From the NCBI GenBank assembly GCA_037441705.1, contig JBBIRR010000028.1:1-55009 (forward strand): 55,009 nucleotides of DNA. The letters run 5' to 3'. Source of the DNA: Ignavibacteriales bacterium. Its GTDB lineage: Bacteria; Bacteroidota; Ignavibacteria; UBA10030; UBA6906. This document shows positions 4,092-54,829 of the stretch, in pieces. Both the position numbers and the translations under genes were made by a program. The first letter of the stretch is position 1; every line of letters starts with the position of its first letter. The notes beneath the pieces are model-generated. The model saw nothing but the letters and a program-made list of their open reading frames with translations, did not search any database and was not told where the DNA came from.

Positions 4092-6758
4092 ATGAAGAAA
4101 CAAATACTGCGGGCTTTGCTCGTAGAACATGAGATAGACGATGTCGCGCGGATCAAGACTTTGTTGCATGAGGTGCGTGAGAAAGCAATTGAAGTCATTC
4201 ACGTCGGATCGCTTGCCGAAGCCGAGCGCTCGCTCGCGAGTGTGACACCGGACGTGATTCTCGCATCGGTGACGCTGCCGGATGCACAAGGAGTTCGGAT
4301 AGTGACTGTACTCGACGCCGCGGCACCTTCTACGCCCATCATCGCGCTGACGCAGTTACGAGACAACGGCATATCCCTCGACGTCATGCGGGCCGGCGCT
4401 CAGGATTTCCTCGTAAAGGAAGAATTGGACAGCCGACTTCTCTCCCGTTCCTTGCGCTATGCGATCGAGCGAAAGAACGTTCAGGAACAGCTCCGGCTCA
4501 GCGAGGAGCACTTCCGCTCGCTCATCGATCTTTCGCTCGATGTCATTATGGTCATCAGCGTTGATGGGAACGTCCGCTACGCGAGCCCGTCAATCAAGCA
4601 CGTCCTTGGATACGATGTAGCAACCATCGTCGGGAAGCGTCTGTTCGATCTGGTACATCCCGACGATGAGTTCCTCTTTCGCCGACCGCTGGAACAACTC
4701 GTGCGCGTACCCTTCTATATTGCACACAGCTTTGCGCGACTTGCCCGCCCCGATGGCTCATGGCGAATACTCGAGACCAATGCGCGCTATCTTTTCGAAG
4801 GCAAGGAACGCGGCAACATTGTGCTCAACCTGCGGGATGTCACGAAGCGGCATCAGGCAGAGGATGCGCTGCGTGAGAGCGAAGCGCGGTATCGGATGCT
4901 CTTCCAGGCCAATCCTCATCCGATGTGGGTGTACGATCGGGAGACGCTTGCCTTTCTCGATGTCAACGAAGCGGCCGTGGCGAAGTACGGATATACACGC
5001 GATGAATTTCTGAGCATGACGATCAAAGACATCCGTCCGCAAGAAGATATCCCGAGGCTTCTTGAGAGCGTCGGCGCGCGGCGTGAGGACCGGGAGGAAG
5101 CCGGCATCTGGCGGCATCGCACAAAAGACGGGGGGCTGATAGATGTCGAGATCATCTCGCACGCCCTCACGTACGAAGAACGGTCTGCCGTCCTCGTGTT
5201 AGCGAACGACGTCACCGAACGCCAACGAGCTGAGAAACAACTCCAGGAAAGCGAAGGCCGTTATCGTCGGTTGTTTGAGGAAGACCTTGCCGCCAATTTC
5301 AGTTCCACACCCGATGGACGTCTGCTGGCATGCAACTCAGCCTTTCTCAGGTTGTTTGGGTTCGATTCGCTGGAAGAGGCACTCAACACCAACACGTCAA
5401 CGCTGTTCATGAACATCGAGACGCGTGATGAGCTGCTGGACGAACTCCGACGCTCCAGGAAGATCGAAGGCAAGGAGCAAATTATGCGTCGTCGTGACGG
5501 CTCTCCCGTGCACGTCGTCGAAAACGTTGTCGGCCAGTTCGACTCTGAGGGCAAACTGATCGAGATGACAGGCTATCTGATGGATGACACGAAGAGGAAA
5601 CACCTCGAAGAACAGATGATCCAGATGCAGAAGATGGAAAGTCTCGGAACGCTTGCGGGCGGCATCGCACACGACTTCAACAATATTCTCGGCATCATCC
5701 TCGGACATTCGCTCATGCTGGAGTCGCAAGCGAACGATCCGAAGAAATTGGCCCAGAGCATAGACACGATCAACAAATCCGTTATGCGCGGGACCGATCT
5801 TGTGCGTCAAATCCTGACGTTTGCGCGCAAGAGCGAGGCTCTTTTCCAGCCGGTTCAGATTTATGATCTCATCGAGGAATTGGTGAAGATGTTGAAGGGA
5901 ACGTTTCCCAAGAACATCGAATTCTCGCTGCAGATGGGCGAAGGACTGCCGACCATCCTCGGCGACAGGACGCAGCTCCATCAAACGCTTCTCAACTTGT
6001 GTGTGAATGCCCGCGACGCCATGCCGAACGGAGGCACACTCACCATCCGCGCAGGTCAAGTCCATGCTGCGGCACTGCGCACGAAACTGCCCAACACGTT
6101 GGCAGGGACGTATGTTCACATTGCAATCGCTGATACGGGAACAGGCATGGACCACGCAACGCGCCAACGCATCTTCGAACCATTCTTCACTACTAAAGAC
6201 AAAGGGAAGGGAACAGGGCTGGGGTTGTCGGTCGTCTACGGCATTATGAAGAGCCACAATGGAACTATTGATGTAGAGACGGAGCCTGGCAAGGGCACAA
6301 CATTCCATCTGTACCTGCCTGTCCCCGAATTCACCTCATCCGGTCCAACCCCGGCCGTGCACAAGGAGACAGAAAACTTGGGTGGATCTGAGACAATCCT
6401 CGTTGTCGAAGACGAGCTACTGCTGCAAGAGCTTGTGAGTAGCTTGCTGCAGAAGGCGGGCTACCGCTTGTTGACAGCATCGGACGGCGAGCAGGCAGTG
6501 GAGATATTCGAACGCCACCAAGACGAGATTGCGCTGGTCGTTACCGACCTGGGCTTGCCGAAAATGTCCGGACTCGAAGTGGTGAAGAAGCTGAAAGCCA
6601 TGAAACCGAACCTGAAGGTCATCTTTGCCAGCGGCTATCTCGATCCGAGCGACAGGCCTGAGATCCTGACGATTGGCGTGCAGGAGTTCATCGAAAAGCC
6701 GTACGTGCCGAACGAGTTGTTGAGCAAGCTGCGCGCAACGCTCGACGCGGCACCGTAG
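4092..6758 (+). CDS. Hybrid sensor histidine kinase (REC-like, 3x PAS, HisKA, HATPase, REC)
   Basis: H-box GGIAHDFNN; N-box NLCVNARDAM; G1 DTGTG; F-box FEPFFTTK; G2 GTGLGL; C-terminal receiver LVVEDE...VTDLGLP...EKP; three PAS repeats. Confidence 0.95.
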   Translation: MKKQILRALLVEHEIDDVARIKTLLHEVREKAIEVIHVGSLAEAERSLASVTPDVILASVTLPDAQGVRIVTVLDAAAPSTPIIALTQLRDNGISLDVMRAGAQDFLVKEELDSRLLSRSLRYAIERKNVQEQLRLSEEHFRSLIDLSLDVIMVISVDGNVRYASPSIKHVLGYDVATIVGKRLFDLVHPDDEFLFRRPLEQLVRVPFYIAHSFARLARPDGSWRILETNARYLFEGKERGNIVLNLRDVTKRHQAEDALRESEARYRMLFQANPHPMWVYDRETLAFLDVNEAAVAKYGYTRDEFLSMTIKDIRPQEDIPRLLESVGARREDREEAGIWRHRTKDGGLIDVEIISHALTYEERSAVLVLANDVTERQRAEKQLQESEGRYRRLFEEDLAANFSSTPDGRLLACNSAFLRLFGFDSLEEALNTNTSTLFMNIETRDELLDELRRSRKIEGKEQIMRRRDGSPVHVVENVVGQFDSEGKLIEMTGYLMDDTKRKHLEEQMIQMQKMESLGTLAGGIAHDFNNILGIILGHSLMLESQANDPKKLAQSIDTINKSVMRGTDLVRQILTFARKSEALFQPVQIYDLIEELVKMLKGTFPKNIEFSLQMGEGLPTILGDRTQLHQTLLNLCVNARDAMPNGGTLTIRAGQVHAAALRTKLPNTLAGTYVHIAIADTGTGMDHATRQRIFEPFFTTKDKGKGTGLGLSVVYGIMKSHNGTIDVETEPGKGTTFHLYLPVPEFTSSGPTPAVHKETENLGGSETILVVEDELLLQELVSSLLQKAGYRLLTASDGEQAVEIFERHQDEIALVVTDLGLPKMSGLEVVKKLKAMKPNLKVIFASGYLDPSDRPEILTIGVQEFIEKPYVPNELLSKLRATLDAAP

Positions 6759-12096: not shown

Positions 12097-13608
12097 TTAC
12101 TTCATTCGACCTTTCGTCACGAGATACGTCGCCGCGTCGCGGACGGATTGCTTTTCAAGATCCACCATCCTGTTCGCGCGGCGCATGGCTTCGTTGGTAA
12201 TTGACCCGATGAGAACTCGCAGGGCATTCACAAGCTGAGAATCTCGAGCCGCCTCGGATGAAATCAGTAAGACGGCATCATACGGAGGCAGCGCCTGTCG
12301 CGGATCGGTAAGAACACGAAGGTTGTACTCAACGATGCGCCCGTCGGTGGAGTAGGCCGAGATGACGTCAACCTGGTTTTCACGAACGGCCGAGTACATG
12401 AGTGTCGGATCGAACGTTCGCCGTCCGGCAAACTGCAGGTTGTATGTTTCCTGCAGTGAACGCCATTCGGGGCGACTGAAGAACTCGTAGTCACTTCCAA
12501 TCGTGAGCCGACGCGCATGCACGGCAAGTTCTTCCATCGAAGAAATATGCAGCCGATGCGCCGTGGATTCCGGCATGGCAAGCGCATACGTGTTTTCAAA
12601 TCCCAATCCACCCAACAACACGATGCCATATTCTCTTTCGAGGAAAGATCTGATTTGTTGCAACATCTCGTTCTTCGGCAGCAGGTCGGACCGGTGCATG
12701 ACGTTGGCCCACAGGGTGCCGGTGTAGTCCACGTAGCATTGGATGCTGTTCGCCGCGAGAGCATCGAACGCGACGGTGGATCCCAGACCGGATTTGGTTT
12801 CCACGGCGAACCCGGAGGCAGCCAATCGTTGCGAGATGAGATCGGCAAGGATGTACTGCTCGGTAAACGTCTTCGCCCCGACGATCACCGCGGGCTTCGT
12901 CGTCGCTGACTTCATCACCCACGGAAGAAACCCGGCAGCAATCAGCACAAGAAGCAATCCCGACCCAAACACAGCGAGCGACGTTCGGCGCTTTGCTGCG
13001 GCGAGTTCCAGCAATCGAATACTCTGATCGAGAACAATGGCAAGGAGAGCCGCTGCGACGCAACCCACAAGGACAGCAGTGAAGTTCTGCGTTTGCAGTC
13101 CGGCGAAGATGTAGTTGCCCAGACTCGTCGCGCCGACGGGCGTTGAGAGCGTCGCCATTCCCACCACCCACACCGCCGCGGTACGAATGCCGGCAATGAT
13201 AACCGGAAGTGCAAGCGGCAATTCGACCAGAAACAATTGCTGCCGCGCCGTCATGCCGACGCCTTTTGCCGCTTCGATCATCGTCGGCTCGATGCCGAGG
13301 ATGCCGGTCACCGTGTTTCTCAAGATCGGCAGCATGCTGTAGAGAACTAAGGCGATGAACGCAGGCAGAAAGCCGATCTGTCCGAGCAAAGGAACCATCA
13401 GCGCGAGAAGCGCGATGCCCGGCACGGTTTGCAGCACACCGGCAAACGTCAGCACCGGCCACTGAAGAGCCGCGACGCGCGCCACCAGAATCGCAAGCGG
13501 CAAGCAGATGAGAATGCTCAGCCCGAGCGCGGAAAGTGAAAGCAGCAAATGATTGCCGAGGTAATCGGGAAGCAACGAAAGTTGTTTGGCAAGCTCGGCT
13601 TCGCTCAT
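12097..13608 (-). CDS. ABC transporter, fused permease + glycine-betaine-type substrate-binding domain (OpuBC/EgtU-like)
   Basis: EAA motif EAAKGVGM; multiple TM helices; binding-domain motifs VGAKTFTEQYIL, YVDYTGT, GFENTYAL, AYSTDG, PPYDA; TGATG coupling to the upstream ATPase. Confidence 0.9.
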   Translation of the reverse strand: MSEAELAKQLSLLPDYLGNHLLLSLSALGLSILICLPLAILVARVAALQWPVLTFAGVLQTVPGIALLALMVPLLGQIGFLPAFIALVLYSMLPILRNTVTGILGIEPTMIEAAKGVGMTARQQLFLVELPLALPVIIAGIRTAAVWVVGMATLSTPVGATSLGNYIFAGLQTQNFTAVLVGCVAAALLAIVLDQSIRLLELAAAKRRTSLAVFGSGLLLVLIAAGFLPWVMKSATTKPAVIVGAKTFTEQYILADLISQRLAASGFAVETKSGLGSTVAFDALAANSIQCYVDYTGTLWANVMHRSDLLPKNEMLQQIRSFLEREYGIVLLGGLGFENTYALAMPESTAHRLHISSMEELAVHARRLTIGSDYEFFSRPEWRSLQETYNLQFAGRRTFDPTLMYSAVRENQVDVISAYSTDGRIVEYNLRVLTDPRQALPPYDAVLLISSEAARDSQLVNALRVLIGSITNEAMRRANRMVDLEKQSVRDAATYLVTKGRMK

Positions 13609-14378
13609 CAATCCGCCCTATCTGTGCGTAATGCGTGCAGCTTGTCCGCCTGACGCTGAGGTGTTGTTAGGAGTGCGGCGGCGTATGGGTGAAGAGGTGC
13701 GATCAGAAGCTCGCGTGGCGTTCCGAGAGCGACAATCCTTCCGTTCTCCATTACGGCAATGCGATCTGCCATCAGCAGTGCCTCGGTCATGTCGTGCGTT
13801 ACCAGCACGACGGTGAGGCCGAGCGTCTTCTGAATCTGGACAAATTCCGTCTGGAGGCGGTCACGATGAATGGGATCGAGCGCGCCGAACGGCTCATCCA
13901 TCAGCATGATGGAGGGTCGTGCGGCAAGTGCCCGCGCCACACCCACGCGCTGCTGCTGTCCGCCGGAGAGTTGCGCCAGCGTGCGCTGGCGAAACTCCGA
14001 CGGAACGAGCCCGACCAGGCTCAGCAGTTCATCAACCCGGTCGGCAATTTGTTTCTTCTCCCATCCCGAAAGACGAAGTACAATGCCGACGTTCTCGGCC
14101 ACCGTCATGTGCGGAAAGAGCCCGACGCCTTGAAACACATAGCCGATCGAGCGACGGAGGTCGGAAGGCTTCACACGCGTGTTCTCGACGCCATCGATGA
14201 GAATCACTCCCGAGCTTGGCTCAATGAGGCGGTTGATCATTTTCAGTGTCGTGGTCTTGCCGCAGCCGGATTCGCCGAGGAGGACGAGGAGTTCGCCGCG
14301 GGAGACGTCGAGCGAGAGGTCGTGCACGACGGGCGTGCCGCCGGAGTAGGATTTTGAGACGTGCTGGAATTGAATCAT
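13608..14378 (-). CDS. ABC transporter ATP-binding protein (OpuA/ProV-like, no CBS tail)
   Basis: Walker A GESGCGKT; signature LSGGQQQR; Walker B LMDEPFGALD; H-loop VTHD; start moved to ATG 14378. Confidence 0.93.
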   Translation of the reverse strand: MIQFQHVSKSYSGGTPVVHDLSLDVSRGELLVLLGESGCGKTTTLKMINRLIEPSSGVILIDGVENTRVKPSDLRRSIGYVFQGVGLFPHMTVAENVGIVLRLSGWEKKQIADRVDELLSLVGLVPSEFRQRTLAQLSGGQQQRVGVARALAARPSIMLMDEPFGALDPIHRDRLQTEFVQIQKTLGLTVVLVTHDMTEALLMADRIAVMENGRIVALGTPRELLIAPLHPYAAALLTTPQRQADKLHALRTDRAD

Positions 14379-42992: not shown

Positions 42993-43502
42993 TCAGATTC
43001 TCCCCTTCTTCCACTTCTCCCATTCACTCCGAAGGATGATCTGTTTCGAATCAACAGCGCGGTCGATGGCAAGAACGCCGTTGATGTGATCAATCTCGTG
43101 CTGCAGCAATTCCGAAAGGGGACCGATGGCTCGGAGCTTCTTCCGCTCCCCATCTTCGGTGCGGTAGGAGACTTCGATTGCCTGATGACGTCTCACCTTC
43201 ACCACCAGATCGGGAAAGCTGAAGCAATCATCCCACAACGTGAAGGTCCGTCTGCTGCGTTTGACGATGACGGGATTGATAAGCGCCTGCGGTTGGTCAA
43301 CATGAATGAAAATGACGCGCCGCGTCGTGCCGATCTGCGGCGCGGCGATGCCCCGCCCGAACCCGTTGCGCTGCTTGAAGTCGTACAGCGTGTCGCGCAA
43401 ATCCTCAATCAGGGAACGGAGGGCCGGCGTTCCGAAGTGTTCCACGCGTCGGCATTTCACGCGCAGCGTCGGATTTCCGAGTAACAGAATCGGCCTGATC
43501 AT
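42993..43502 (-). CDS. def: Peptide deformylase (variant motif 2)
   Basis: GIAAPQIG, INPVI, DDCFS (canonical EGCLS) and QHEIDHING motifs. Confidence 0.9.
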   Translation of the reverse strand: MIRPILLLGNPTLRVKCRRVEHFGTPALRSLIEDLRDTLYDFKQRNGFGRGIAAPQIGTTRRVIFIHVDQPQALINPVIVKRSRRTFTLWDDCFSFPDLVVKVRRHQAIEVSYRTEDGERKKLRAIGPLSELLQHEIDHINGVLAIDRAVDSKQIILRSEWEKWKKGRI

Positions 43503-43515
43503 GCGTCGCCTCGTG

Positions 43516-44316
43516 TTAGAATCCTTCCGCTCTCATCACTCTTCCCAACTTCTGACCGAGAAATCTCTCCCCCACTTCGGTGAACTTTGCCGGTACGTCG
43601 CTGACGAAGAATTGAAGATGAGGTTTGAGAGACGATGGGTTGCGCAGCTTCCGCTCCTCGAGGATGCGTTCGACTTCGGCCGCCGCTGCTTCACCCGAGT
43701 CAATCAGGTGCACGTTGCCGTCAACGACTTTCTTGATAACGTCCTTCAGCAGCGGGTAATGCGTGCAACCGAGGATGAGGCAATCAATCTTTTCTATCTT
43801 CAACGGAAACAGATACTCCTTCGCAATCATCTCCGTGGCTTTGTGATGCGTCCATCCTTCCTCGGCAAGAGGAACGAACAACGGGCATGCCTGCGAGAAC
43901 ACTTTCACGTCGGGATCGAGTTGGCGGAGGGCATTGCTATACGCCTGACTGCCGATGGTGGCGATCGTACCGATGACTCCGATGCGCTTCCTTTTCGATA
44001 CGGCCACTGCTGCCGCCGCCCCCGGAAGAATCACACCTACCACCGGAACGTTGGCGCGCTTCATCACCACATCCAGCGCAACGCCCGAGACGGTGTTGCA
44101 CGCTATGACGATCATCTTGACATTCTTGGAGAGAAGGAAATCCGTATCCTCGGCCGCATATTCGCGAATCACGCGCGGCGACTTGGGTCCGTAGGGCACA
44201 CGCGCCGTATCGCCGAAGTACACGATGTTTTCATGCGGGAGGCGCTGCGTGAGGGCATGGACGACGGTCAGTCCGCCGATGCCGCTATCGAACACGCCGA
44301 TCGGTCTGGAGTTCAT
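43516..44316 (-). CDS. murI: Glutamate racemase
   Basis: FDSGIGGLTV, PYGPK, IACNT and LGCTHYP motifs. Confidence 0.97.
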   Translation of the reverse strand: MNSRPIGVFDSGIGGLTVVHALTQRLPHENIVYFGDTARVPYGPKSPRVIREYAAEDTDFLLSKNVKMIVIACNTVSGVALDVVMKRANVPVVGVILPGAAAAVAVSKRKRIGVIGTIATIGSQAYSNALRQLDPDVKVFSQACPLFVPLAEEGWTHHKATEMIAKEYLFPLKIEKIDCLILGCTHYPLLKDVIKKVVDGNVHLIDSGEAAAAEVERILEERKLRNPSSLKPHLQFFVSDVPAKFTEVGERFLGQKLGRVMRAEGF

Positions 44317-46961
44317 GGACTTGCGGCAAGCTCCTGCTCGGACACCTGTTTGATAGTGTGAAGAAGCTCGAGCCGAATTTCCTCGCGCCGGGCAGGCTCG
44401 GTAATGCGGTTGCCGTTGCGATCGAGGACGTAGAATGCATCGAGGATGCCGTCCACCCGCGTGGCGATCTTCGCGAAATAGATGTCGAGACCCAGCTTGG
44501 ACATGGCTTCGGTGATTCTGTACAGAAAGCCGAGCGCATCCGGTGCGTAGACGTCAATAATCGTGTAGCGCGGATGCTCTTCGAACTGCACATCCGTGCG
44601 GATGTTGGGGTTGTCGGGGCGCTTCGGCCGTCGCTTCCATTTCCGGCGGTGCGCCGCGAAGAGATGTTCGATATCCAACTTCCCTTCCATCACATCATTC
44701 AGATCACGAGCAATCTTCTGACACACACTTTCACGCAGCTCGGCCTTGGTTGCGGCATCGCTCACCCGAAACCGGTCAATGATGACGCCGTCCTCGCGTG
44801 TGAAGATATTGGCGTCGAAGATGTTTGCATCGTTGGCGGCAAGAACCGCGCAGAACTTGGAGAGGGCAAACGGTGCATCGTCGGCAATGACGGTGATTTC
44901 GGTGTACCCGCCCTGGTGCGAAAAGATCGTGGACACCGTTTCTGCCGTCTCGCTGTGGTGAATATGCTGCGCAATTTCCTCGTCGTTGAACAGGGCAACA
45001 TAGGCGTCGCTCTGGATGCCGTTGAGATGCTGGTGGATGCGTTCCCGTTCCAGCCTCTCGCTGAGGCGGTTGACAAGAACTTCCTTCGCTCGCTCGTGGC
45101 GCGCCTGTTTGAAGCGCTCGATTTGCTCGCCCTTCAAGTTGCGGTGCAGCACTTCCGCCGTAAGCTGGTACAACTCCTGCAAGAGTGAGGACTTCCACTC
45201 CGTCCACACACTCGTGTTCACCGCCGAAAGATCGGCGTAGGTGAGAAGGTAGAGATAGTCAAGCTGTTCGGGGCGTTCGAACTTTGCAGCAAACTCTCTG
45301 ATCGTTGCCGGATCATGGATATTGCGGCGAAAGGCGACCTGTTCCATTACCAGGTGATGACGAATGAGGAAGGCAACATCGGGAACGATGTCGCTCATGC
45401 CGAGACGATCGAGCATGGCATTCGCCACAGCAACGCCCGTGACTTCATGATCTGCCACGCCGAGCGGCTTTGCGATGTCGTGCAGGAGGATGGCCATATA
45501 CAGCACGTCCTTGCGCCGGAGGTTGCGAAACACGTCTCGCATCACCCCCTGTCGTTCGCGCAAGCGTTCGGCATTGGCCAGGGCGATCAGCGTGTGCTCA
45601 TCCGCGGTGAAGTAGTGATACACGTTGTGTTGAAAGAACGCGACGAGGTCGCCCCATTCCGGAAGATACGCCGCCAGCACATTCAGCTCATTCATGTCGT
45701 GCAATGTTGCGGCAACGCGGCGGGAGTGTATAATCCGGCGGAACATCAGCGCAAGCTCCGGCGAGCGGCGCTGCTCGTCATCGAACACGTCAAGGCTTTC
45801 GGCAATCACCCGTCGGAGCCGCGCATGCAGGTCCAGCTCGTACTCGGCGCAGAGCATGAACGCTTCGAGGATGTCGCGCGCCTGAGCAAACCGCTCCACA
45901 TGCGGGGCAATGGTGAGCGTCCCATCGACACGAGAGAATGTGTCCGTCAGGCGTTCGGCGCGGGAACTGAAGTGCCGTACCGGCTCGATCACTTCCTGGA
46001 AACGATGCGAGAGGTTCTGATAGAGGCGATGCAGAATGCGGGCATGCAGGTAATACTCACGCATGAAGACTTCTACAGAATGCAACTCGGCTTTGCGGCC
46101 AAATCCCAGGCCCTCCGCAACCTCACGCTGCAGCGCGTATTCCAATCCATCGCTGGCCACCTCGCGGCGGAAGTGCATTTCGTGCCGTGTGCGGAGAAGG
46201 AACTGCAGTGCCCGCTCGACGGCCGCGTGTTCGTGTTCGTCTATGATGCCGTGACGGGTCAATTCGACGAGGAACGCTGCCAGCGCCGCCTTGCCGCTCT
46301 CGAGCGGGAAGAGGTAATCCGGATCGTTGCCGCGATAGAGCCAGAAGAGTGCGTGAAGATCGCGCAAGCCCCCGGCGCTCTTCTTGATGTTCGGCTCCAA
46401 CAGCTTCACCGAGTTGCCAAAGCGTTCATGCCGCGCGCGCGCTTCCTCGAACACTCCTTCGATGAACCAGCGATCGGTTCCTTTCGCCACCTGCCGACGC
46501 ATCTCTGCGGCAAAGGCTTTTGCCAGTTCCTCGTTTCCGCAGACGAACCGACTCTCCAGCAGCGATGCCCACGATTCGATCGCCTTGCCTTGCTGCGCCA
46601 GCGCCTCTTTCACCGTGCGGACGCTGTGCCCGACGTTCAAGCCTGCATCCCACAGGACGTGCAGAACCTGCTTCGCCAACCCCTCCGCGACTTCTTTTCC
46701 TTCTCCATCATCTGCAAGAATCATCACGTCAACATCCGATCGGGGACAAAGTTCTGCGCGACCGTATCCTCCGAGGGCAAGCACGGCGATGCGGTGGCTC
46801 TGCGCAGCTACCGACTCGTAGGCGCGATGAACTGCTTCGTCCATCATCGCGGTGAGGGCAGCACACGTTGCCAGTCCTTGCGCGCCCGATGTATGTACGG
46901 CAGCGATTGCGGTTCGCCGAGAAGAGATGAATTCTTTGAGAGAGATCGTGGATTCGTGCAT
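44313..46961 (-). CDS. glnD: [Protein-PII] uridylyltransferase / uridylyl-removing enzyme
   Basis: ALGGYGR..L.PRSDVD, EPNIKKSAGGLRD, HD domain YHYFTADEH...LLHDIAK, two C-terminal ACT domains; start moved to ATG 46961. Confidence 0.96.
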   Translation of the reverse strand: MHESTISLKEFISSRRTAIAAVHTSGAQGLATCAALTAMMDEAVHRAYESVAAQSHRIAVLALGGYGRAELCPRSDVDVMILADDGEGKEVAEGLAKQVLHVLWDAGLNVGHSVRTVKEALAQQGKAIESWASLLESRFVCGNEELAKAFAAEMRRQVAKGTDRWFIEGVFEEARARHERFGNSVKLLEPNIKKSAGGLRDLHALFWLYRGNDPDYLFPLESGKAALAAFLVELTRHGIIDEHEHAAVERALQFLLRTRHEMHFRREVASDGLEYALQREVAEGLGFGRKAELHSVEVFMREYYLHARILHRLYQNLSHRFQEVIEPVRHFSSRAERLTDTFSRVDGTLTIAPHVERFAQARDILEAFMLCAEYELDLHARLRRVIAESLDVFDDEQRRSPELALMFRRIIHSRRVAATLHDMNELNVLAAYLPEWGDLVAFFQHNVYHYFTADEHTLIALANAERLRERQGVMRDVFRNLRRKDVLYMAILLHDIAKPLGVADHEVTGVAVANAMLDRLGMSDIVPDVAFLIRHHLVMEQVAFRRNIHDPATIREFAAKFERPEQLDYLYLLTYADLSAVNTSVWTEWKSSLLQELYQLTAEVLHRNLKGEQIERFKQARHERAKEVLVNRLSERLERERIHQHLNGIQSDAYVALFNDEEIAQHIHHSETAETVSTIFSHQGGYTEITVIADDAPFALSKFCAVLAANDANIFDANIFTREDGVIIDRFRVSDAATKAELRESVCQKIARDLNDVMEGKLDIEHLFAAHRRKWKRRPKRPDNPNIRTDVQFEEHPRYTIIDVYAPDALGFLYRITEAMSKLGLDIYFAKIATRVDGILDAFYVLDRNGNRITEPARREEIRLELLHTIKQVSEQELAASP

Positions 46962-47021
46962 GTGTGAATATACTGAGAGAGGAGGGAAATTCAAAAGCGG
47001 CGGCGCAACGAAGGACCCGCC

Positions 47022-49085
47022 TCAGTCCAATCCCATCCGCTTCACGAGAGAGACAAACCGCGGATGGAAGCGAATGCCGTCGAACGCCGGGTCCACCTTC
47101 ACCATCACCATCGAGCCATCATGCTCGGCGAATGCCTTTTCGAGCCACGCCAAGGCTTCATCGTTCTCGCCCAACCCTACTGCAACAACAGCCCGCCAGT
47201 ATGGCGGCACATACCGCTCCGCTGATATCTCATCGAGAATCTCCACCATCATCAACGCATCTTCCTTCCTTCCCGCGCGTGCGTAAGCATTTCCGAGTGC
47301 GGCAATGGGCACAGGATGGCGCAGCGCAGCAAGACTCATCCCCGCGGTGACATGCTGAAACGCAGCAATGGCTTCCCTGTACATTCCTTTCTGAACGAAT
47401 GCGCCTCCGAGCGGAATGTTGGCCACCACAAATGTCGGATCCATCTCTACCGTTTTCGTAAACTGACGAATGGCCTCGTCGTATCTTCGTGCAAAGTACA
47501 ATGTCAGACCGACGTCGGCATTGATCACCGGCGAAAGCGGGTCGAGATCAAGCGCCTCTTGCCGTACGTCCGTCGCCTGCCGAAACCGTCCCATAACCGT
47601 CAGCAGGTACGCATACCAGCTTCGCGCGGTGGCGTAGTTGGGGTTGAGGTCCATCGCCTGCCGTAACTCCCGTTCGGCCGTTGGCCAATCCCAATCATAA
47701 TTCATGATGGCAAAGCCGAGCGACGCGTGGGCTTCGGCAAGCGTACTATCGAGCAATATGGCTTTCGTTGCGGCTGCCTTCGCCTCCGGATACGTTTGTT
47801 GAGGGGGATCGAGATTGTAATTGCCGAGGATTGTATAGGAATCTGCAAGACCGGCATAGGCAAGCGCGTAGGTGGAATCGCGCGCGATGGCTTCTTTGAA
47901 ATGCTGAATTCCTCGGTTCAGCTTGTCAGGAAGACGCTTGTTCCAGTAATACCGACCCTTCAAGTACAGATCGTACGCTTCGAGATTCTCGGTGGGTTTT
48001 CGTTCGAGACGATCTTTTTCCGTGGGTGAGATGGTCGCTTCGAGGGCTTTTGCGATTTTGATCGCAACATCCGTCTGGATAGCAAAGATGTGTGTCAGCA
48101 CACCGTCGTACTGTTCCGTCCAGAGATGTTGGTCATTGCTTGTGTTGATCAACTGAGCCAGAATCCGAACCCGATTGCCCACTTTGCGGACACTTCCTTC
48201 GAGGACGCTGGCAACATGTAGCTCTTCTCCGATCTCGCGTACACTTTTCTGACGATTCTTGTACTGCATGATCGAGGTTCGCGAGGTGACCCGCAGCGCG
48301 CGAATCTTCGAGAGCTGTCCGATCACCTCATCAGTCATACCATCGCTAAAGTACTCGCCTTCATTGTCGCCGCTGATGTTTTTGAAAGGCAGCACGGCGA
48401 TCGAATTGCTCTCGGTTGGCCCGCGAACAAACGGAACAAGCACAAGGGCGGCGACAGCAATCCCCATTCCGAGTGCAAGCCCTGCGTACACGGGTCGTTT
48501 CTTTTGTTTGAGAAAGAACGAGAGACGCTCGGCACGTGCCGAACTCTTGCGCTCCCATGGCATGACCACGCGGTAGATGCCGACGGGAAGCTGGATGTTC
48601 TTCAGCTCGCCTCTCCCTAGGCGGACCAGCGACAGCTCGATCTTGTTTTCGATCTGACGAGCAAGATCTTCCGACAGACAGATGCCCCCTGTCGGTGCGA
48701 AGGGCTCAATCCGCGCGGCAATGTTGACGCCATCGCCATGCACATGCTTGCGCCGATGGACAACATCGCCGACATGCAAACCAATCCGGAGAAGAATGTG
48801 ACGTGCCGCTGCGGTCCGGAGATTTCGTTCATGCAGCCGCGTCTGAATCTCAACGGCACACCGCACCGCATGCAGGGCACTTGCAAACTCGACAAAGAAG
48901 GCGTCGCCCGCCGTTTCAATTTCCTTCCCACCAAATTGAGGAAAGAGGGGTCGCAGAATGCGTTTTTGTTCCTCGAGCAACTCCAGCGCAAGCGCTTCGT
49001 CCTTCTGCGCTAACGCACTGTAGCCAACCATGTCCGTGAACATGATGGCGGCAAGTCGGCGGACGTCTCGTGCGCTGTCAGACAT
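47022..49085 (-). CDS. Class III nucleotide cyclase - TM - TolB-like - TPR protein (paralog 1)
   Basis: AIMFTDMVGYS, IETAGD, RIGLHVGDV, HVHGDGVNIAAR; TM helix; SIAVLPF.N...YFSDG; TPR repeats. Confidence 0.9.
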   Translation of the reverse strand: MSDSARDVRRLAAIMFTDMVGYSALAQKDEALALELLEEQKRILRPLFPQFGGKEIETAGDAFFVEFASALHAVRCAVEIQTRLHERNLRTAAARHILLRIGLHVGDVVHRRKHVHGDGVNIAARIEPFAPTGGICLSEDLARQIENKIELSLVRLGRGELKNIQLPVGIYRVVMPWERKSSARAERLSFFLKQKKRPVYAGLALGMGIAVAALVLVPFVRGPTESNSIAVLPFKNISGDNEGEYFSDGMTDEVIGQLSKIRALRVTSRTSIMQYKNRQKSVREIGEELHVASVLEGSVRKVGNRVRILAQLINTSNDQHLWTEQYDGVLTHIFAIQTDVAIKIAKALEATISPTEKDRLERKPTENLEAYDLYLKGRYYWNKRLPDKLNRGIQHFKEAIARDSTYALAYAGLADSYTILGNYNLDPPQQTYPEAKAAATKAILLDSTLAEAHASLGFAIMNYDWDWPTAERELRQAMDLNPNYATARSWYAYLLTVMGRFRQATDVRQEALDLDPLSPVINADVGLTLYFARRYDEAIRQFTKTVEMDPTFVVANIPLGGAFVQKGMYREAIAAFQHVTAGMSLAALRHPVPIAALGNAYARAGRKEDALMMVEILDEISAERYVPPYWRAVVAVGLGENDEALAWLEKAFAEHDGSMVMVKVDPAFDGIRFHPRFVSLVKRMGLD

Positions 49086-49103
49086 ACCTTTTGTCTTGTA
49101 TGA

Positions 49104-51197
49104 TCATCTGCCGCGGTTCCCTTCGCTGGCGAGCGACGCATCGCTCAACCCCATACGATTCAGGAGTGAAGTAAATCTCTTGTCCGAACGAAGCGGGTCG
49201 AAGACCGGATCGGCTTTCAGAAACACCATCGAAGCGTCGCGATCGGTATACGCACGTTCGAGCCACTTCAGCGCTTCATCGGAATTACCCATGCCCATGG
49301 CGACGACGGCTCGGGAGTAGGGCGAGACATACCGGTTGGTTGTTGCAAGCCGATCAAGTTTCTGCACGGTTTGCAAGGCCTCGGTCGGTCGGCCGGCAAC
49401 GGCGTAGGCATGGGCAAGGGCCGCCAGCGGAAGCGCCTGTCGAAGGGGCGTACCTGATGCAACTTGCTGCAACACGTCAATGGCTTCCGTGTACATCTGC
49501 TTCTGGAGGTATGCGGCGCTCAACGGAATGCGCGCCAGCAGGACCATCGAATCGAGTTGCAACGCTTTCTTGAATTCCGCAATCGCCTCGTCGTACTTGC
49601 GCGAGAAGTAAAGAATGAGACCGCCTTCGCTGTTGACGGTCGGTGAAAGAGGATCGAGCCGGACGGCCTGTCGGTGCACGGTGTGGGCCTCGTCGTAGCG
49701 GCCCAGCACCGTCAGCAGATAGGCGTACGATACCCACGCCGGTGCATAGCTGGGATTGATTTGAATGGCGCGCTCAAGCTCGCGCTGCGCCGTCGCCCAA
49801 TCCCAATCGTAGTTGAGCGCAGCAAGTCCCAGCAACGCGCGAGCCTCGGCGAGCGTGCTGTCGAGCGTCAACGCCTTCTGCGCAGCTTCCTTCACGAGCG
49901 GATAGGTCTCGCGCGGAGAGAGAATGTTCATGTCTTCCAGCCGCGCGTAGGATTCCGCCAGCCCGGTATAGGCAAGTGCAAAGGTCGAGTCGAGGGCGAT
50001 GGCTTGCTTGAAGAACTCGATGCCCTTCTGCACATCTTCCGGCAGACGTTGATTCCAGAAGTAGCGCCCTTTCAGATACAGATCGTAAGCTGCGCGATCG
50101 GCTGTTGGCTGCCGCGCCAATCTGGCTTGCTCTTCGGAGGAGATGTTCGCTTCCAGCGACGTGGCAATTTTTTTTGCAATATCGGATTGAAACGCGAAGA
50201 TATCCGTCATAACGCCGTCGTACTGTTCGGTCCAGAGATGGCGGTCATCGGCGGCGTCGATCAGTTGCACGAGGATGCGCACGCGAAGAGAGTCACGTCG
50301 CACGCTGCCTTCCAGGATATGAGCCACCCGCAGCTCGTTGGCAATCTCGCCCACGTTCTTCGGCTTGTTCTTGTACTGCATGATGGAGGTTCGTGAGGTC
50401 ACACGAAGGGCATGCAGTTTCGACAACTGTCCGATCACTTCCTCCGTAAGCCCGTCCGCAAAGTATTCGGACTCGCCGGCAGGAGAGAGATTTTTGAAGG
50501 GAAGGACGGCAATGGAGTTAGGCTCGGGCGGCGCATGCAGGAGTGATGGCACGACGAGCAAGGCAAGAACGAAGATCACGACGATTGCCAGCGTACTATA
50601 CGCTCTTCGTCTTGCCCGCCGGAGCAGAAACCGAACCCGGTCGATCGCAGCAGCGGTTCTGGTTTCCCATGGGAGTACGATGCGAAAGATGCGCACCGGC
50701 AGACTGATGTTCTTCAACTCCCCCTTGCCGAGCTTGGCCAACGGCAGGCCGAGTTTGTTTTCGATCTGGCGCGCAACATCTTCCGACACACATATACCGC
50801 CCGGTCGGGCACAAGGCTCGATGCGAGCTGCGATGTTCACGCCATCTCCGTGCACGTGCCTGTCGAGATGAACAACATCGCCAAGATGAAGTCCTATCCG
50901 AAGCAGGATGCGTCGTTCGGGCGAGACCTCGGCGTTTCGTTCACGAAGGAGTTTCTGAATCTCCACGGCACATCGCGCAGCATCGAGGGCGCTGGCAAAC
51001 TCCACAAAGAAGGAATCGCCCGCGGTTTCGATCTCCTCGCCGTTGAACTGTGGGAAGAGCGGCCGCAGCAATCGCCGGTGTTCCTCCAGAAGGTCAAGCG
51101 CAAGCGTTTCATCCGTCTGCGCGAGAGCGCTATAGCCAACCATGTCGGTGAACATGATGGCGGCAAGCTTGCGAGCGCGGGAAGCTTCTTCCATCAT
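49104..51197 (-). CDS. Class III nucleotide cyclase - TM - TolB-like - TPR protein (paralog 2)
   Basis: Same architecture and motifs as paralog 1 (AIMFTDMVGYS, IETAGD, HVHGDGVNIAAR); start moved to about 51197. Confidence 0.9.
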   Translation of the reverse strand: MMEEASRARKLAAIMFTDMVGYSALAQTDETLALDLLEEHRRLLRPLFPQFNGEEIETAGDSFFVEFASALDAARCAVEIQKLLRERNAEVSPERRILLRIGLHLGDVVHLDRHVHGDGVNIAARIEPCARPGGICVSEDVARQIENKLGLPLAKLGKGELKNISLPVRIFRIVLPWETRTAAAIDRVRFLLRRARRRAYSTLAIVVIFVLALLVVPSLLHAPPEPNSIAVLPFKNLSPAGESEYFADGLTEEVIGQLSKLHALRVTSRTSIMQYKNKPKNVGEIANELRVAHILEGSVRRDSLRVRILVQLIDAADDRHLWTEQYDGVMTDIFAFQSDIAKKIATSLEANISSEEQARLARQPTADRAAYDLYLKGRYFWNQRLPEDVQKGIEFFKQAIALDSTFALAYTGLAESYARLEDMNILSPRETYPLVKEAAQKALTLDSTLAEARALLGLAALNYDWDWATAQRELERAIQINPSYAPAWVSYAYLLTVLGRYDEAHTVHRQAVRLDPLSPTVNSEGGLILYFSRKYDEAIAEFKKALQLDSMVLLARIPLSAAYLQKQMYTEAIDVLQQVASGTPLRQALPLAALAHAYAVAGRPTEALQTVQKLDRLATTNRYVSPYSRAVVAMGMGNSDEALKWLERAYTDRDASMVFLKADPVFDPLRSDKRFTSLLNRMGLSDASLASEGNRGR

Positions 51198-51275
51198 GAG
51201 TACATCTCCCGTTACAGTGACGACAATTGCGTGGTGCACTCCGGCGTTCTCACCGCCGACGGGGTGGGAACATCT

Positions 51276-52565
51276 TCAGGGAGAGTGCTTGTACACTCTT
51301 CCATCTTTCATCACGAACGACACATGTTCAAGAACGGAGATATCATCAAGCGGATTGCCTTTGACGGCAACGATATCGGCAAAGGCACCGGGCGTAATTT
51401 CGCCAATCAGGCCCTTCATGTCAAGCAGCTCCGCTGCCACGGTGGTTGCCGATTTGATGGCCTGCATGGGACTCATCCCCCATTTCACCATGTATGAAAA
51501 CTCCTTGGCTTGATTTTCCGTCCATGCGAAGCCGCCTGCATCGGTCCCGAACGCTATTTTCACACCCGCTTTAACAGCTTTGCTGAAGGTGATGGGCAGG
51601 ATGTCGTTGAAGGCTTTGTTCATGGGATTGCCGGCAGCAGCTCGCCCTTCTGCAACCCAGATGTTGACGTAGATGGTCGGACACCAGTACACTCCCTTCT
51701 GGACCAACAGGCGGATGCACTCGTCATCCATCGCGAAGCCGTGTTCGATGGATGCGGCGCCGGCGTTGACCGCGTAGATCACTCCGTCGCGCGTCACGGC
51801 ATGAGCGGCAAACCGCTTGCGGGAGATGCGCGTCTCTTCGGCGATGGCGTTGATTTCTTCGTGCGAGAAGTTCGGAATGCTGCGGAAGGTTCCGTCAGGA
51901 AGGCGGTAGTAGCCGCGGTCGGCGTAGATTTTTATCCAGTCGGCGCCGTAGGAAAGCTGTTCTCGAACGGCACGGCGCGCTTCATCGGGGCCGGTAATTT
52001 CCTGCACGCCTTTGGGCATACGCAGTTCCCATGCGTACGCACGATTGCTGAGCAGGTAGTGTCCCGTCGTGTTGATGGCGCGCGTGGAAACAAACAGCCG
52101 CGGCCCTTCGATGATACCGTTGTTGATGGCTTTCTTCAGATCAACGTCCGCGTACATCGCGCCTTCGCTTTCCACATCACGCAGCGTTGTGAAGCCGTTC
52201 AGCAGCGCCGTTCTGCATGCGGCGGCGCCGCGCAAGGTTCGGTACGGAAGGGACTCCTTCAAGATCTGCTCGGCGTAATCCTCCTCGGTGATGTCTCCCT
52301 GCAGCAAGACATGCGTGTGGCAGTCGATGAGTCCGGGGAGAACCGTCGCATCGGACAGATCAATCACCTTCGCTCCGTCGGGAATCTGAACGCGCTGCCC
52401 GACCTGCCGAATGATGTTGCCTTCGATCAGCACAACGGCGTTGTCTATCGGCTTGTCGGATTTTCCGTCAATGAGTCTGCCGCAGGTGATGGCAGTAATG
52501 TGCTGCTGTCCCCATGCAATGGAAAGACCAAGCAGGCTCAGCAGGCTCAAGCAAAAGAGTTTCAT
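51276..52565 (-). CDS. Exported amidohydrolase (Xaa-Pro dipeptidase/prolidase-like subgroup)
   Basis: Signal peptide; PGLIDCHTH, GFTTLRD, GADWIK, AAHA, SIEHG and FGTDAG motifs. Confidence 0.9.
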   Translation of the reverse strand: MKLFCLSLLSLLGLSIAWGQQHITAITCGRLIDGKSDKPIDNAVVLIEGNIIRQVGQRVQIPDGAKVIDLSDATVLPGLIDCHTHVLLQGDITEEDYAEQILKESLPYRTLRGAAACRTALLNGFTTLRDVESEGAMYADVDLKKAINNGIIEGPRLFVSTRAINTTGHYLLSNRAYAWELRMPKGVQEITGPDEARRAVREQLSYGADWIKIYADRGYYRLPDGTFRSIPNFSHEEINAIAEETRISRKRFAAHAVTRDGVIYAVNAGAASIEHGFAMDDECIRLLVQKGVYWCPTIYVNIWVAEGRAAAGNPMNKAFNDILPITFSKAVKAGVKIAFGTDAGGFAWTENQAKEFSYMVKWGMSPMQAIKSATTVAAELLDMKGLIGEITPGAFADIVAVKGNPLDDISVLEHVSFVMKDGRVYKHSP

Positions 52566-52612: not shown

Positions 52613-54829
52613 TCAGTTCGCCGCCCTCGTGACATCTGCCGTTATGGCGTCAAGCAATCGAGCAACATCATCGAGAACTTTCCCGGCACGCACAATTTCT
52701 TGTTCGGCTTCCTTCCACTTCTTCTGTTCAATCGCTTCGCGCACACCCGGAATGGTTTTTACTCCGTAGCCCGTGTACAGTCCCGGAGCGTAAATGAGAT
52801 GCTTGAACCACGGCCGGTTCGGCAAGCCAGCATCGTCTGTGAGATATCGCTCGCTCCGGATGAGATTCTTGTTAATCAACGCAGTCTTCGATGTCGTAGA
52901 AGAGCGGGCCTGGTCGAGCGCCTCTTTCAATCGCTTCGCCGACTCGGTCAGATGTGCCGAGCCGTTCTCCAGCGGGGCAAAGTTGAGAAACGGCGGCACG
53001 GGCTCTTTTGCCGGTGGCAACGTTGGACGGCGAGGATCCGAAGTTGCGGCAAACACGCCGTCATCGAGCTGACGGTTGCGTTCGATGATCTCGTCCCGCT
53101 TCTCCTGCGATAGCTTCTTCAGCTCATCAACATATTGAGCAAACGTGGCTGCCTGTCGTGTGAACTCGAACGGCAAAAGCTCGGCATCGGCGACACGCAT
53201 CACCGCGGTACCGGCAGTTTGTGCGAGCGCCCTGCCGTAGAGGAAGCTCGTGTCTGAAAACGTCGTGTACCAGTAATAATCATCATAGATGGAATGATAG
53301 ATTCCATCGCGGTCTTCGCCGCCGAAACCGAGGTTGAGCGACGCGATGCCGAGATGTTCGAGAAACGGCGTATAGTCGGAGCCGGAGCCGAGGGCATCAA
53401 TCTTCATGGTGGAGGAGCTGCGAAGCTCGGCGCGGACTTCGCGCGCCGCGTTCTTGATGCGCAAGAGGTGCAGCCGCTTCCACACGGAAAGGTTTGTTTC
53501 GGGATCGGTGATTTCCTTTGCAACCTCGTTGATGAACTGCTCCAGCGAGTGCGAACCACCCATGGAAAGATAGCCTCGTCCGTTGGAGTCGGAGTTGATG
53601 TACAGGACGGCCTTGGAGCGAAGCTCGTCTGCGTGCGCCTCCACCCATTCCGTCGAACCGAGCAGACCCTGTTCCTCGCCGTCCCACGCGCAGAACACGA
53701 TCGTTCGCTTCGGCCGCCAGCCCTGCTTCAGCAGCATGCCCATCGCCCGCGCCTCTTCAAGCATAGGCGCGAGACCCGAGATCGGGTCCTCCGCCCCATT
53801 CACCCACGCATCATGATGATTGCCGCGAATGACCCACTCATCGGGATAGGCCGAGCCTTTGAGTCGCGCAACGACGTTGTGAATCTTCACCAAATCCCAA
53901 TTGCACTTCACCTTCAAATGTACTCTTGCGGGCCCAGGTCCGACCTTGTAGGTGAGGGGCAGCGCGCCGCGCCAGCTTTCGGGTACGACCGGACCTCCAA
54001 GCGCCTCAAGCAGCGGCTTTGCGTCTGCATACGAGATGGGAAGCGTCGGGATTTTGGTGAACGTCTGAACGTCGGCGAGCGCCAGGCGCTTTGCCTGCGG
54101 CGTTGCCGGAACGCCCGGCGTTAGCGGGTCGCCGGAGTGGATGGGCATGTCCATCACGCTGCCGCGCTGCACACCGAACTCCGGACGAAACGGCCCCTTG
54201 GGAAAGACATCGCCCTGATAATAGCCGTCATTCTTCGGATCGGAGTAGATAAGGCAGCCCACCGCGCCGTACTCGGCCGCCACCTTTGGTTTGATGCCGC
54301 GCCACGAAGCACCGTACCGCGCAATCACGATGCACCCCTGAACGGAAACGCCCATCCGCTCGAGCTGCTCATAGTCTTCGGGGATGCCGTAGTTCACGTA
54401 GACAAGCGGAGCCGTCACCTCACCGTCTATCGAGAAGGCGTTGTACGTCGGCAGGTGTTCATCCTGCAATTGTGAGTACGGATCTTCCGCAAGCGGCGGC
54501 TCACGCAGCGACGCGACGAATCGTGTCGGCGCGACCAGCTCCAGCACTCGCTCCTTCGGAGTTGGAAACAGCACATCGAACGACTCGATCGTCGCCTCCC
54601 ATCCCCACTCTTTGAAGCGTGCGAGCATCCATTCGGCATTCTGCTTTCCGTACGCGGAGCCGATATGATGCGGCCGGGCCGAGAGCAGCTTCATGTATTC
54701 ACGAATGCGGCCAGGCTCGGGAATCGCGCGGAATTTCTCCTCCCAAACCCTTCCTTCGGGTTGAGCCGTTGTCCAATAAAGAGGTATGATGAGAAAGAAG
54801 AGGACAAAACGAATACTGGGCGATGCCAT
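52613..54829 (-). CDS. M28 glutamate carboxypeptidase II-like peptidase (PA + TfR dimerisation domains), exported
   Basis: Signal peptide; VYVNYG, GNHHDAW..GAEDP, WDGEEQGLLGSTEW, GSGSDY, YHSIYD and RPWFKHLIYAPG motifs. Confidence 0.92.
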   Translation of the reverse strand: MASPSIRFVLFFLIIPLYWTTAQPEGRVWEEKFRAIPEPGRIREYMKLLSARPHHIGSAYGKQNAEWMLARFKEWGWEATIESFDVLFPTPKERVLELVAPTRFVASLREPPLAEDPYSQLQDEHLPTYNAFSIDGEVTAPLVYVNYGIPEDYEQLERMGVSVQGCIVIARYGASWRGIKPKVAAEYGAVGCLIYSDPKNDGYYQGDVFPKGPFRPEFGVQRGSVMDMPIHSGDPLTPGVPATPQAKRLALADVQTFTKIPTLPISYADAKPLLEALGGPVVPESWRGALPLTYKVGPGPARVHLKVKCNWDLVKIHNVVARLKGSAYPDEWVIRGNHHDAWVNGAEDPISGLAPMLEEARAMGMLLKQGWRPKRTIVFCAWDGEEQGLLGSTEWVEAHADELRSKAVLYINSDSNGRGYLSMGGSHSLEQFINEVAKEITDPETNLSVWKRLHLLRIKNAAREVRAELRSSSTMKIDALGSGSDYTPFLEHLGIASLNLGFGGEDRDGIYHSIYDDYYWYTTFSDTSFLYGRALAQTAGTAVMRVADAELLPFEFTRQAATFAQYVDELKKLSQEKRDEIIERNRQLDDGVFAATSDPRRPTLPPAKEPVPPFLNFAPLENGSAHLTESAKRLKEALDQARSSTTSKTALINKNLIRSERYLTDDAGLPNRPWFKHLIYAPGLYTGYGVKTIPGVREAIEQKKWKEAEQEIVRAGKVLDDVARLLDAITADVTRAAN

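Follow-up and report, generated by a model that had tools for sequence, protein, structure and literature searches.

Two adjacent genes from an Ignavibacteriales bacterium encode class III nucleotide cyclases whose predicted base-reading residues are glutamate and histidine, in place of the lysine and aspartate of adenylate cyclases. They lie on the minus strand of a 55,009-nucleotide window that spans positions 1 to 55,009 of contig JBBIRR010000028.1 (assembly GCA_037441705.1). A first-pass annotation, made from the sequence letters, had proposed tandem cyclase paralogs at 47022..51197 and suggested that they form a cyclic GMP (cGMP) signaling pair. Two open reading frames (ORFs), P0002 upstream and P0001 downstream, occupy this interval, and both contain the strings quoted in that annotation. 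Both proteins are class III cyclases by every family feature tested, namely, the domain profile, the metal-binding aspartates, the transition-state Asn and Arg, and the fold. Because the catalytic machinery is intact and the base pocket carries Glu and His, a preference for GTP and production of 3',5'-cGMP appear most likely; we give about an even chance to the reading that P0001 and P0002 are GTP-preferring receptor cyclases making 3',5'-cGMP.

The assignment of the two base-reading positions comes from sequence alignments to 3mr7 and Ma1120, not from a residue-level structural alignment to mammalian adenylate cyclase C2 or soluble guanylate cyclase (sGC). The motifs MFTDMVGY, IETAGD, and HVHGDGVNIAARIE were found in P0001 and P0002 alike. 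In a phmmer alignment with 3mr7 (E = 2.2e-29, 106 bits), VKTTGD and DIFGDAVNVAARLE of the latter aligned without gaps to IETAGD and HVHGDGVNIAARIE of the query. Wild-type Ma1120 and its KDA-to-EGY mutant, aligned in the same way, differ from each other exactly at the columns of query residues E57, H114, and A124; K101 of wild-type Ma1120 falls in the E57 column. According to PMC4215837, these Ma1120 columns are the two base-specifying positions and the position of a Tyr in Cya2. E57 and H114 thus occupy the two purine-selecting positions in both proteins, as the first-pass annotation had read them; the alignments placed no Lys/Asp pair there. The pattern of adenylate cyclases (Lys at site 1, Asp or Thr at site 2) was absent from both proteins, and that of guanylate cyclases was found, with Glu at site 1 and His, a non-Asp residue, at site 2.

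The remaining catalytic residues were retained, again in agreement with the first-pass annotation. In both proteins, D18 and D61 aligned with the metal positions of 3mr7 and Ma1120, and N121 and R125, within VNIAAR, fell at the transition-state positions; both paralogs look catalytically complete. Pfam profile PF00211 matched the two proteins with 50.6 and 54.1 bits (cut-off, 21.9). In an AlphaFold2 model of residues 1 to 190 of P0001 (mean predicted local distance difference test score, 90.6), the cyclase homology domain fold is present. The best Foldseek match of this model was 3mr7 (E = 3.6e-17, TM-score 0.83-0.93), with Rv1900c and Ma1120 next and Cya2, sGC, and CYG12 lower.

The frequency of the Glu/His pair was surveyed among relatives. 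A full-length search gave 7904 matches among 8000 scored candidates, from which the best 120 were taken, and a search with the cyclase domain against 50%-identity representatives gave 2438 matches at E <= 1e-30, from which the best 150 were taken. The 269 proteins from the matches listed were aligned to the query domain and yielded 260 domains. Glu was found at site 1 in 128 of these, mostly partnered by His (E/H, 55 domains) or Asn (E/N, 48) and less often by other residues (E/R, 7; E/Y, 5; E/Q, 5; E/S, 4; E/K, 3; E/G, 1). The rest comprised 109 K/D domains, 2 K/E domains, and 21 others. The E/D combination was not found in any of the 260 aligned domains among the matches listed. The representative set, which is unbiased, gave 155 domains, of which 102 were K/D and 41 were of the E/x type, in contrast to the nearest relatives from the full-length list, in which 74 of 107 aligned domains were E/H or E/N. 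The expectation that this family normally carries Lys/Asp, stated in the first-pass annotation, therefore holds for the wider family but fails close to the window proteins, where the Glu/His pair, far from being unique to this locus, belongs to the rule.

Comparison of 126 Glu-type with 109 K/D domains revealed strong differences at three positions only: Lys gives way to Glu at 57, Leu to Phe at 64, and Asp to His or Asn at 114. Partial shifts were seen at 59, 113, 116, and 124. Outside the classical pair, covariation was strongest at position 64: Phe64 accompanied Glu57 in 120 of 127 cases, and Leu or Met accompanied Lys57 in 110 of 111. D61, N121, R125, and K162 were all kept in 124 of the 128 Glu-type domains; among these relatives, D18 was conserved in 98%, R100 in 100%, and the metal aspartates and N121/R125 in 98-99%. 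Since Glu at site 1 recurs in 128 of 260 relatives' domains and never with Asp, the Glu/His pair is not a product of chance, and its consistent avoidance of Asp suggests selection on a new pocket rather than drift. The small number of differing positions and the retention of the catalytic residues likewise point to a remodeled, working base pocket and not to decay.

In the mechanism that we propose, the outer part of each protein, a TolB-like region followed by tetratricopeptide repeats (TPR), would sense a signal and control the N-terminal cytoplasmic cyclase. The cyclase domain would most likely act, as expected from its family, as a homodimer whose interface harbors two active sites. In these sites, Glu/His would have replaced Lys/Asp, the base-reading pair that recognizes adenine N1 and N6. 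Glu57 could accept hydrogen bonds from the guanine N1-H and 2-amino group, and His114, which is Asn in many relatives, could donate to guanine O6. Nearly all of the partner residues seen in relatives (His, Asn, Arg, Tyr, Gln, Ser, and Lys) should be able to hydrogen-bond a carbonyl such as this one.

Published guanylate cyclases offer parallels to this pocket. PMC7384201 attributes the main guanine-specific bond of the RhGC-GTP structure to the site 1 Glu and describes poor conservation of site 2 across guanylate cyclases. The relatives surveyed here, with an invariant Glu beside a variable partner, match this pattern, which favors GTP. PMC4215837 lists C, S, T, H, A, and G at site 2 of guanylate cyclases and reports that the K101E substitution in Ma1120 raised guanylate and lowered adenylate activity. 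The cGMP-making PucC cyclase was modeled with Glu/Lys at the base-reading positions, according to bioRxiv 10.64898/2026.08.12.744502, and the cGMP receptor XC_0249 recognizes guanine by the same logic, through Glu plus Asn (PMC3770947).

Several observations weigh against a GTP preference. Two related mycobacterial enzymes with odd pairs, Rv0386 (Gln/Asn) and Rv1900c (Asn/Asp), are adenylate cyclases. P0001 and P0002 carry Ala124 at the position of Tyr in the Ma1120 mutant and in Cya2. Up to 19 kb around the Glu-type genes was collected from ten loci of eight relatives (107 ORFs), and Pfam searches of the 46 of these ORFs nearest the cyclases, at nine loci, detected no shared cyclic nucleoside monophosphate (cNMP)-binding, phosphodiesterase, or effector neighbor. 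Likewise, when 41 relatives were compared, no cNMP-binding protein of the window's genome followed the Glu-type cyclases in its distribution. Table 3 of PMC4215837 shows that Ma1120 variants combining Glu with Cys, Gly, or Thr gained guanylate activity and still preferred ATP. The variant that became even-handed was a triple mutant that needed the Tyr (PMC4215837), and K101E/D157H, the Glu/His variant, was made but has no kinetics in Table 3 of that paper. Of the cGMP signaling pair first suggested, the guanylate-type residues are in place; cGMP synthesis is a prediction from them, made in the knowledge that the Glu variants of Ma1120, the closest enzyme to have been characterized, are mostly ATP preferring (PMC4215837).

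The main alternative is that the Glu/His pair loosens base selection, making these proteins dual-specificity or mainly adenylate cyclases that produce cyclic AMP (cAMP) with or without cGMP. This is possible, although we lean against it. Base selection is loose among short-arm cyclases, and the nearest folds, Rv1900c and Ma1120, are of this kind. A124 is the Ala of adenylate cyclases rather than the Tyr of Cya2, and the Ma1120 variants point in the same direction, with kcat/Km still higher for ATP than for GTP in the Glu plus Cys, Gly, or Thr combinations (PMC4215837, Table 3). Yet K101E alone cut the Ma1120 kcat for ATP about 16-fold in that report, from 216 to 13.4 per second. Natural Glu-type proteins also add coupled changes that the mutants lack, at position 64 (Phe in 120 of 127) and at 59, 113, and 116; Glu co-occurs with Asp in 0 of 128 cases; and the genome already has a Lys/Thr cyclase. 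Much less probable is the use of another nucleotide (UTP, CTP, or ITP) or the synthesis of a noncanonical product. Glu combined with a hydrogen-bond donor could read uracil N3-H and O4, or hypoxanthine, and PADLOC returned a weak PycC match (27 bits), which is nonetheless far below the scores for PF00211 (50-54 bits) and 3mr7 (106 bits). Pyrimidine cyclases, as described in PMC11224242, use Y50/D94/R97 or F100/R142/Q144; they also adjoin an effector gene, in contrast to the amidohydrolase and glnD-like neighbors found here. A Pycsar/Pucsar defense cyclase was considered and rejected: besides the 27-bit PycC match, the neighbors encode the amidohydrolase, an M28 peptidase, the glnD-like protein, and MurI, with no adjacent TIR or transmembrane effector.

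Whether the two proteins work solely as a heterodimer is independent of the substrate question. Heterodimerization had been raised in the first-pass annotation, and the tandem genes, 18 bp apart and encoding proteins with 60% identity, would suit it, as would relative G023, which has two copies on one short contig (C99). Each protein nevertheless has every catalytic residue, and the paralogs lack the complementary losses that make heterodimers obligatory. A single match was found in each of the relatives G009, G010, and G021. With both paralogs complete and some relatives having one match, obligate pairing is improbable and is not needed to explain the locus. The idea that the cyclase domains are catalytically silent scaffolds of sensor proteins is very doubtful: nothing specific speaks for it, and the conservation of D61, N121, R125, and K162 in 124 of 128 Glu-type domains and of D18 in 98% runs counter to it. 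Taken together, these comparisons leave GTP-preferring receptor cyclases as the favored reading.

The domain architecture of the two proteins is consistent with such a receptor function. Each has one hydrophobic peak only, at residues 202-220, with a basic run just N-terminal to it. By the positive-inside rule, the basic residues predict a cytoplasmic cyclase domain and an outward-facing TolB-like/TPR region, in keeping with the extracytoplasmic TPR sensor first envisaged. TPR families were matched alongside PF00211, and the C-terminal repeats close with an NCBIfam TPR end-of-group domain. The juxtamembrane 181 aa of P0001 matched no significant Pfam family, the best being a weak FlgO match (E = 0.065); in homologs, the Joint Genome Institute names this region TolB-like.

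Among known proteins, the Lys/Asp receptors with a cyclase, transmembrane helix, TolB-like region, and TPR are closest, sharing family and architecture with the window proteins (cyclase domains 35-66% identical; median, 58%). These receptors and 3mr7 have Lys/Asp, Leu64, and Phe/Tyr116, whereas the window proteins have Glu/His, Phe64, and His116. The best match in both sequence and fold, 3mr7, is a Silicibacter pomeroyi cyclase domain from structural genomics that belongs to the same domain family. Ma1120 from Mycobacterium avium (PDB 4wp8, 5d0g; E = 6e-14, TM-score 0.78-0.93) resembles the window proteins in its short class III domain, and its KDA-to-EGY mutant shows the effect of a site 1 Glu in this scaffold. 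Unlike them, it is a soluble, natural Lys/Asp adenylate cyclase with Ala164 instead of the transition-state Asn, and its engineered variants are not GTP selective as reported in PMC4215837.

The established guanylate cyclases Cya2 from Synechocystis (Glu/Gly), CYG12 from Chlamydomonas, animal sGC, and fungal RhGC (Glu/Cys) share the site 1 Glu and a non-Asp site 2, and all four turned up among the sequence or fold matches. They are distant (E = 7e-8 to 0.005), have Cys or Gly and not His at site 2, and carry other regulatory domains; in Cya2, a Tyr occupies the position of Ala124. An E/H pair had been named in the first-pass annotation for Dictyostelium GCA. PMC4215837 does report a site 2 His, and hence Glu/His as here, for a Dictyostelium discoideum guanylate cyclase, without saying which enzyme; that protein is eukaryotic and of unrelated architecture. 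Like the window proteins, XC_0250 of Xanthomonas campestris combines an N-terminal class III cyclase with a TPR region and makes cGMP, not cAMP, in vitro (PMC3770947), but it has Ala150 at site 2 and Leu/Ala in place of the transition-state Asn/Arg. Its linked gene XC_0249 encodes a cGMP-binding partner, whereas no such partner was seen at the window locus. The class III-like PucC (Pucsar) and PycC (Pycsar) differ as soluble defense enzymes encoded beside TIR or transmembrane effectors, with only the 27-bit match; PucC makes cGMP with a modeled Glu/Lys pair (bioRxiv 10.64898/2026.08.12.744502), a combination seen in 3 of the 260 relatives' domains. The literature searched contained no description of a Glu/His or Glu/Asn bacterial receptor cyclase, although an earlier one is possible because the main survey of bacterial guanylate cyclases was not covered, and no paper in it joined "Ignavibacteri" with "guanylate cyclase."

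The history of the Glu/Lys difference was reconstructed from trees built without the trait columns (alignment of ~180 columns). A FastTree phylogeny of 258 rows required at least 14 Glu/Lys changes and gathered most Glu-type rows into a 151-row group (120 Glu, 18 Lys, 13 other) that is nested within the K/D rows; a quick IQ-TREE phylogeny of 82 rows required 10. A single Glu-type clade, defined by the trait itself, was rejected by the approximately unbiased test (P = 0.0044; log-likelihood difference, 100.6). On supported branches, there were three independent Glu/Lys contrasts; on average, a change at site 57 was accompanied by one at site 114 in 2.9 of the 3. With only three supported contrasts, the coupling test is underpowered; repeated coupled switching of the pocket residues is suggested by these alignments and trees. 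We tentatively propose, as a plausible but less than even prospect, that the receptor family has moved back and forth several times between two coupled pocket states, Lys/Asp/Leu64 and Glu/(His, Asn, Arg, and others)/Phe64, and that the Glu state represents widespread, undescribed receptor guanylate cyclases of Bacteroidota, Ignavibacteria, and Calditrichota, often fused to kinases. In a bolder extension of this proposal, the product of the Glu state might be neither cGMP nor cAMP but some other nucleotide.

The distribution of the Glu type was examined at two scales. The window's genome (3.83 Mb, 92 contigs) encodes three class III cyclases: P0001, P0002, and a canonical CHASE2 cyclase with a Lys/Thr pair. 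Across 41 related genomes, a domain match was found in 21, and the Glu type was patchy, occurring in nine (G000, G005, G009, G010, G011, G013, G015, G021, and G023), all of the same family. The best 80 loci from species-representative genomes, all of them metagenome-assembled genomes with taxon labels as deposited, comprised 36 E/x, 35 K/D, 8 D/x, and 1 G/N. The E/x loci came from Bacteroidota (20), Ignavibacteriota (10), Calditrichota (2), Betaproteobacteria (2), Nitrospirota (1), and an unplaced genome (1), and 25 of the 35 K/D loci from Verrucomicrobiota. An N-terminal extension of at least 250 aa was present in 23 of 128 Glu-type domains versus 2 of 109 K/D domains and, where checked, was a Ser/Thr kinase domain; in such kinase-fused receptors, cGMP synthesis and protein phosphorylation would both be under the control of a single extracellular sensor.

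Other arrangements were observed in relatives. Ser/Thr kinase-TPR proteins adjoin Glu-type cyclases, or the kinase is fused N-terminally (983 and 1034 aa), at L042 (2276-4973), L043 (3423-8097), L045 (1707-4658), and L048 (8701-11805); at L042, one kinase gene is broken into two ORFs (160 and 142 aa). In the scanned loci, only two kinds of neighbor recurred, each at 2 loci: Ser/Thr kinase-TPR paralogs and UbiD/UbiX/UbiA genes. Immediately upstream of the Glu-type gene in relative G013 lies a 1007-aa cyclase with NB-ARC and TPR domains (L044, 402-3425); its site 1 residue is Asp, its site 2 residue is Gly, and a His replaces the transition-state Asn. Short cyclase ORFs of 307-318 aa (L026, L028, and L030 in relatives G019, G034, and G012), 37-41% identical, form a second, more distant group in which the site 1 Glu is paired with Lys or Val.

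A genome scan for cNMP-binding effectors, which had been proposed at the outset, identified seven proteins with cNMP-binding domains in the window's genome, none of them tied to the cyclase genes. One (L005; G000 contig C11, 38418-39653) is a cNMP-gated ion channel with Ion_trans and cNMP-binding domains. This channel occurred in 10 of the 41 related genomes, 5 of 9 with Glu-type cyclases versus 5 of 32 without, and within the same family in 5 of 9 versus 5 of 16, among kin that are not independent; shared ancestry could account for this weak trend. G000 contig C52 encodes two CRP-type paralogs with 71% identity (L006, ~13511-14200; L008, ~5305-5988). Both have Phe-Glu where Escherichia coli CRP has Thr127-Ser128, and L008 lacks the phosphate-cassette Arg; in the cGMP-binding XC_0249, a Glu at the CRP Ser128 position reads guanine. 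The distribution of L006 and L008 across the 41 relatives does not follow the Glu-type cyclases: relatives of L006 (at least 52% identity, or fragments) were found in 3 of 9 Glu-type genomes versus 8 of 32 others. A CNB-GAF histidine kinase was present in 37 of 41 genomes. None of these distributions points convincingly to an effector, and the CRP-type paralogs are tentative candidates.

Coordinates of the gene pair, its features, and its neighbors are collected in Table 1. P0001 and P0002 are identical at 413 of 687 positions, with 4 gaps, all C-terminal, and no convincing terminator was found in the 18 bp between the P0002 stop and the P0001 start. The P0002 start was set at the ATG at 51197, with GGGAGA ~7 nucleotides upstream; the alternative is a GTG at 51239. 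All genes around the pair are on one strand, in the order M28 peptidase, amidohydrolase, P0002, P0001, glnD-like, murI, def. The glnD-like gene begins 27 bp past the P0001 end. Adjacency of cyclase and glnD-like genes was absent from the nine relatives' loci with scanned cyclase neighbors, and the link is therefore probably one of local gene order only.

Table 1. Positions of the cyclase genes, their predicted features, and adjacent genes in the window
Feature	Position	Strand	Basis
P0002, upstream paralog, 697 aa: cyclase, transmembrane helix, TolB-like region, TPR receptor	49104..51197	-	ORF call
P0002 class III cyclase domain, aa 8-178	50664..51176	-	Pfam PF00211
P0002 predicted single transmembrane helix, aa 202-220, RRARRR N-terminal to helix	50538..50594	-	Hydrophobicity
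P0002 predicted extracytoplasmic part: juxtamembrane TolB-like region, TPR repeats, TPR end-of-group domain	49107..50537	-	Domain searches, homolog names
P0002 Glu57 codon, first base-specifying position	51027-51029	-	Alignment
P0002 His114 codon, second base-specifying position	50856-50858	-	Alignment
P0002 D18; D61; N121; R125 codons	51144-51146; 51015-51017; 50835-50837; 50823-50825	-	Codon check
P0001, downstream paralog, 687 aa, architecture as P0002	47022..49085	-	ORF call
P0001 class III cyclase domain, aa 8-178	48552..49064	-	Pfam PF00211, AlphaFold2
P0001 predicted single transmembrane helix, aa 202-220, KQKKR N-terminal to helix	48426..48482	-	Hydrophobicity
P0001 predicted extracytoplasmic TolB-like region and TPR repeats	47025..48425	-	Domain searches
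P0001 Glu57 codon, first base-specifying position	48915-48917	-	Alignment
P0001 His114 codon, second base-specifying position	48744-48746	-	Alignment
P0001 Phe64 codon (position 64)	48894-48896	-	Covarying position
P0001 D18; D61; N121; R125 codons	49032-49034; 48903-48905; 48723-48725; 48711-48713	-	Codon check
M28 peptidase, 738 aa: PA and transferrin-receptor-like dimerization domains, glutamate carboxypeptidase II type architecture	52613-54829	-	
Amidohydrolase, 429 aa, apparent N-terminal signal-like sequence	51276-52565	-	
glnD-like gene, 893 aa: GlnD_UR_UTase, HD, and ACT domains	44313-46994	-	
Glutamate racemase murI	43516-44316	-	
Peptide deformylase def	42993-43502	-	

Few bacterial guanylate cyclases have been characterized, and cGMP is a messenger seldom documented in bacteria. 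In its introduction, PMC4215837 sets many cAMP-making enzymes against only a few putative prokaryotic guanylyl cyclases. If the proposed GTP preference is correct, receptor-type cGMP signaling would exist across a large set of bacteria from soil and groundwater, mostly Bacteroidota and Ignavibacteria, that covers 36 of the best 80 species-representative loci. If these enzymes make cAMP instead, Glu at site 1 would be no predictor of guanylate cyclase activity in the short-arm subclass. Mutagenesis of Ma1120, Rv1625c, and CyaG, as summarized in PMC4215837, left open which residues complete the specificity switch. Under the GTP reading, the family would supply a natural series of closely similar Lys/Asp and Glu/x enzymes, with domains up to ~66% identical and three strongly differing positions, and such a series could reveal extra switch residues, for example, at position 64.

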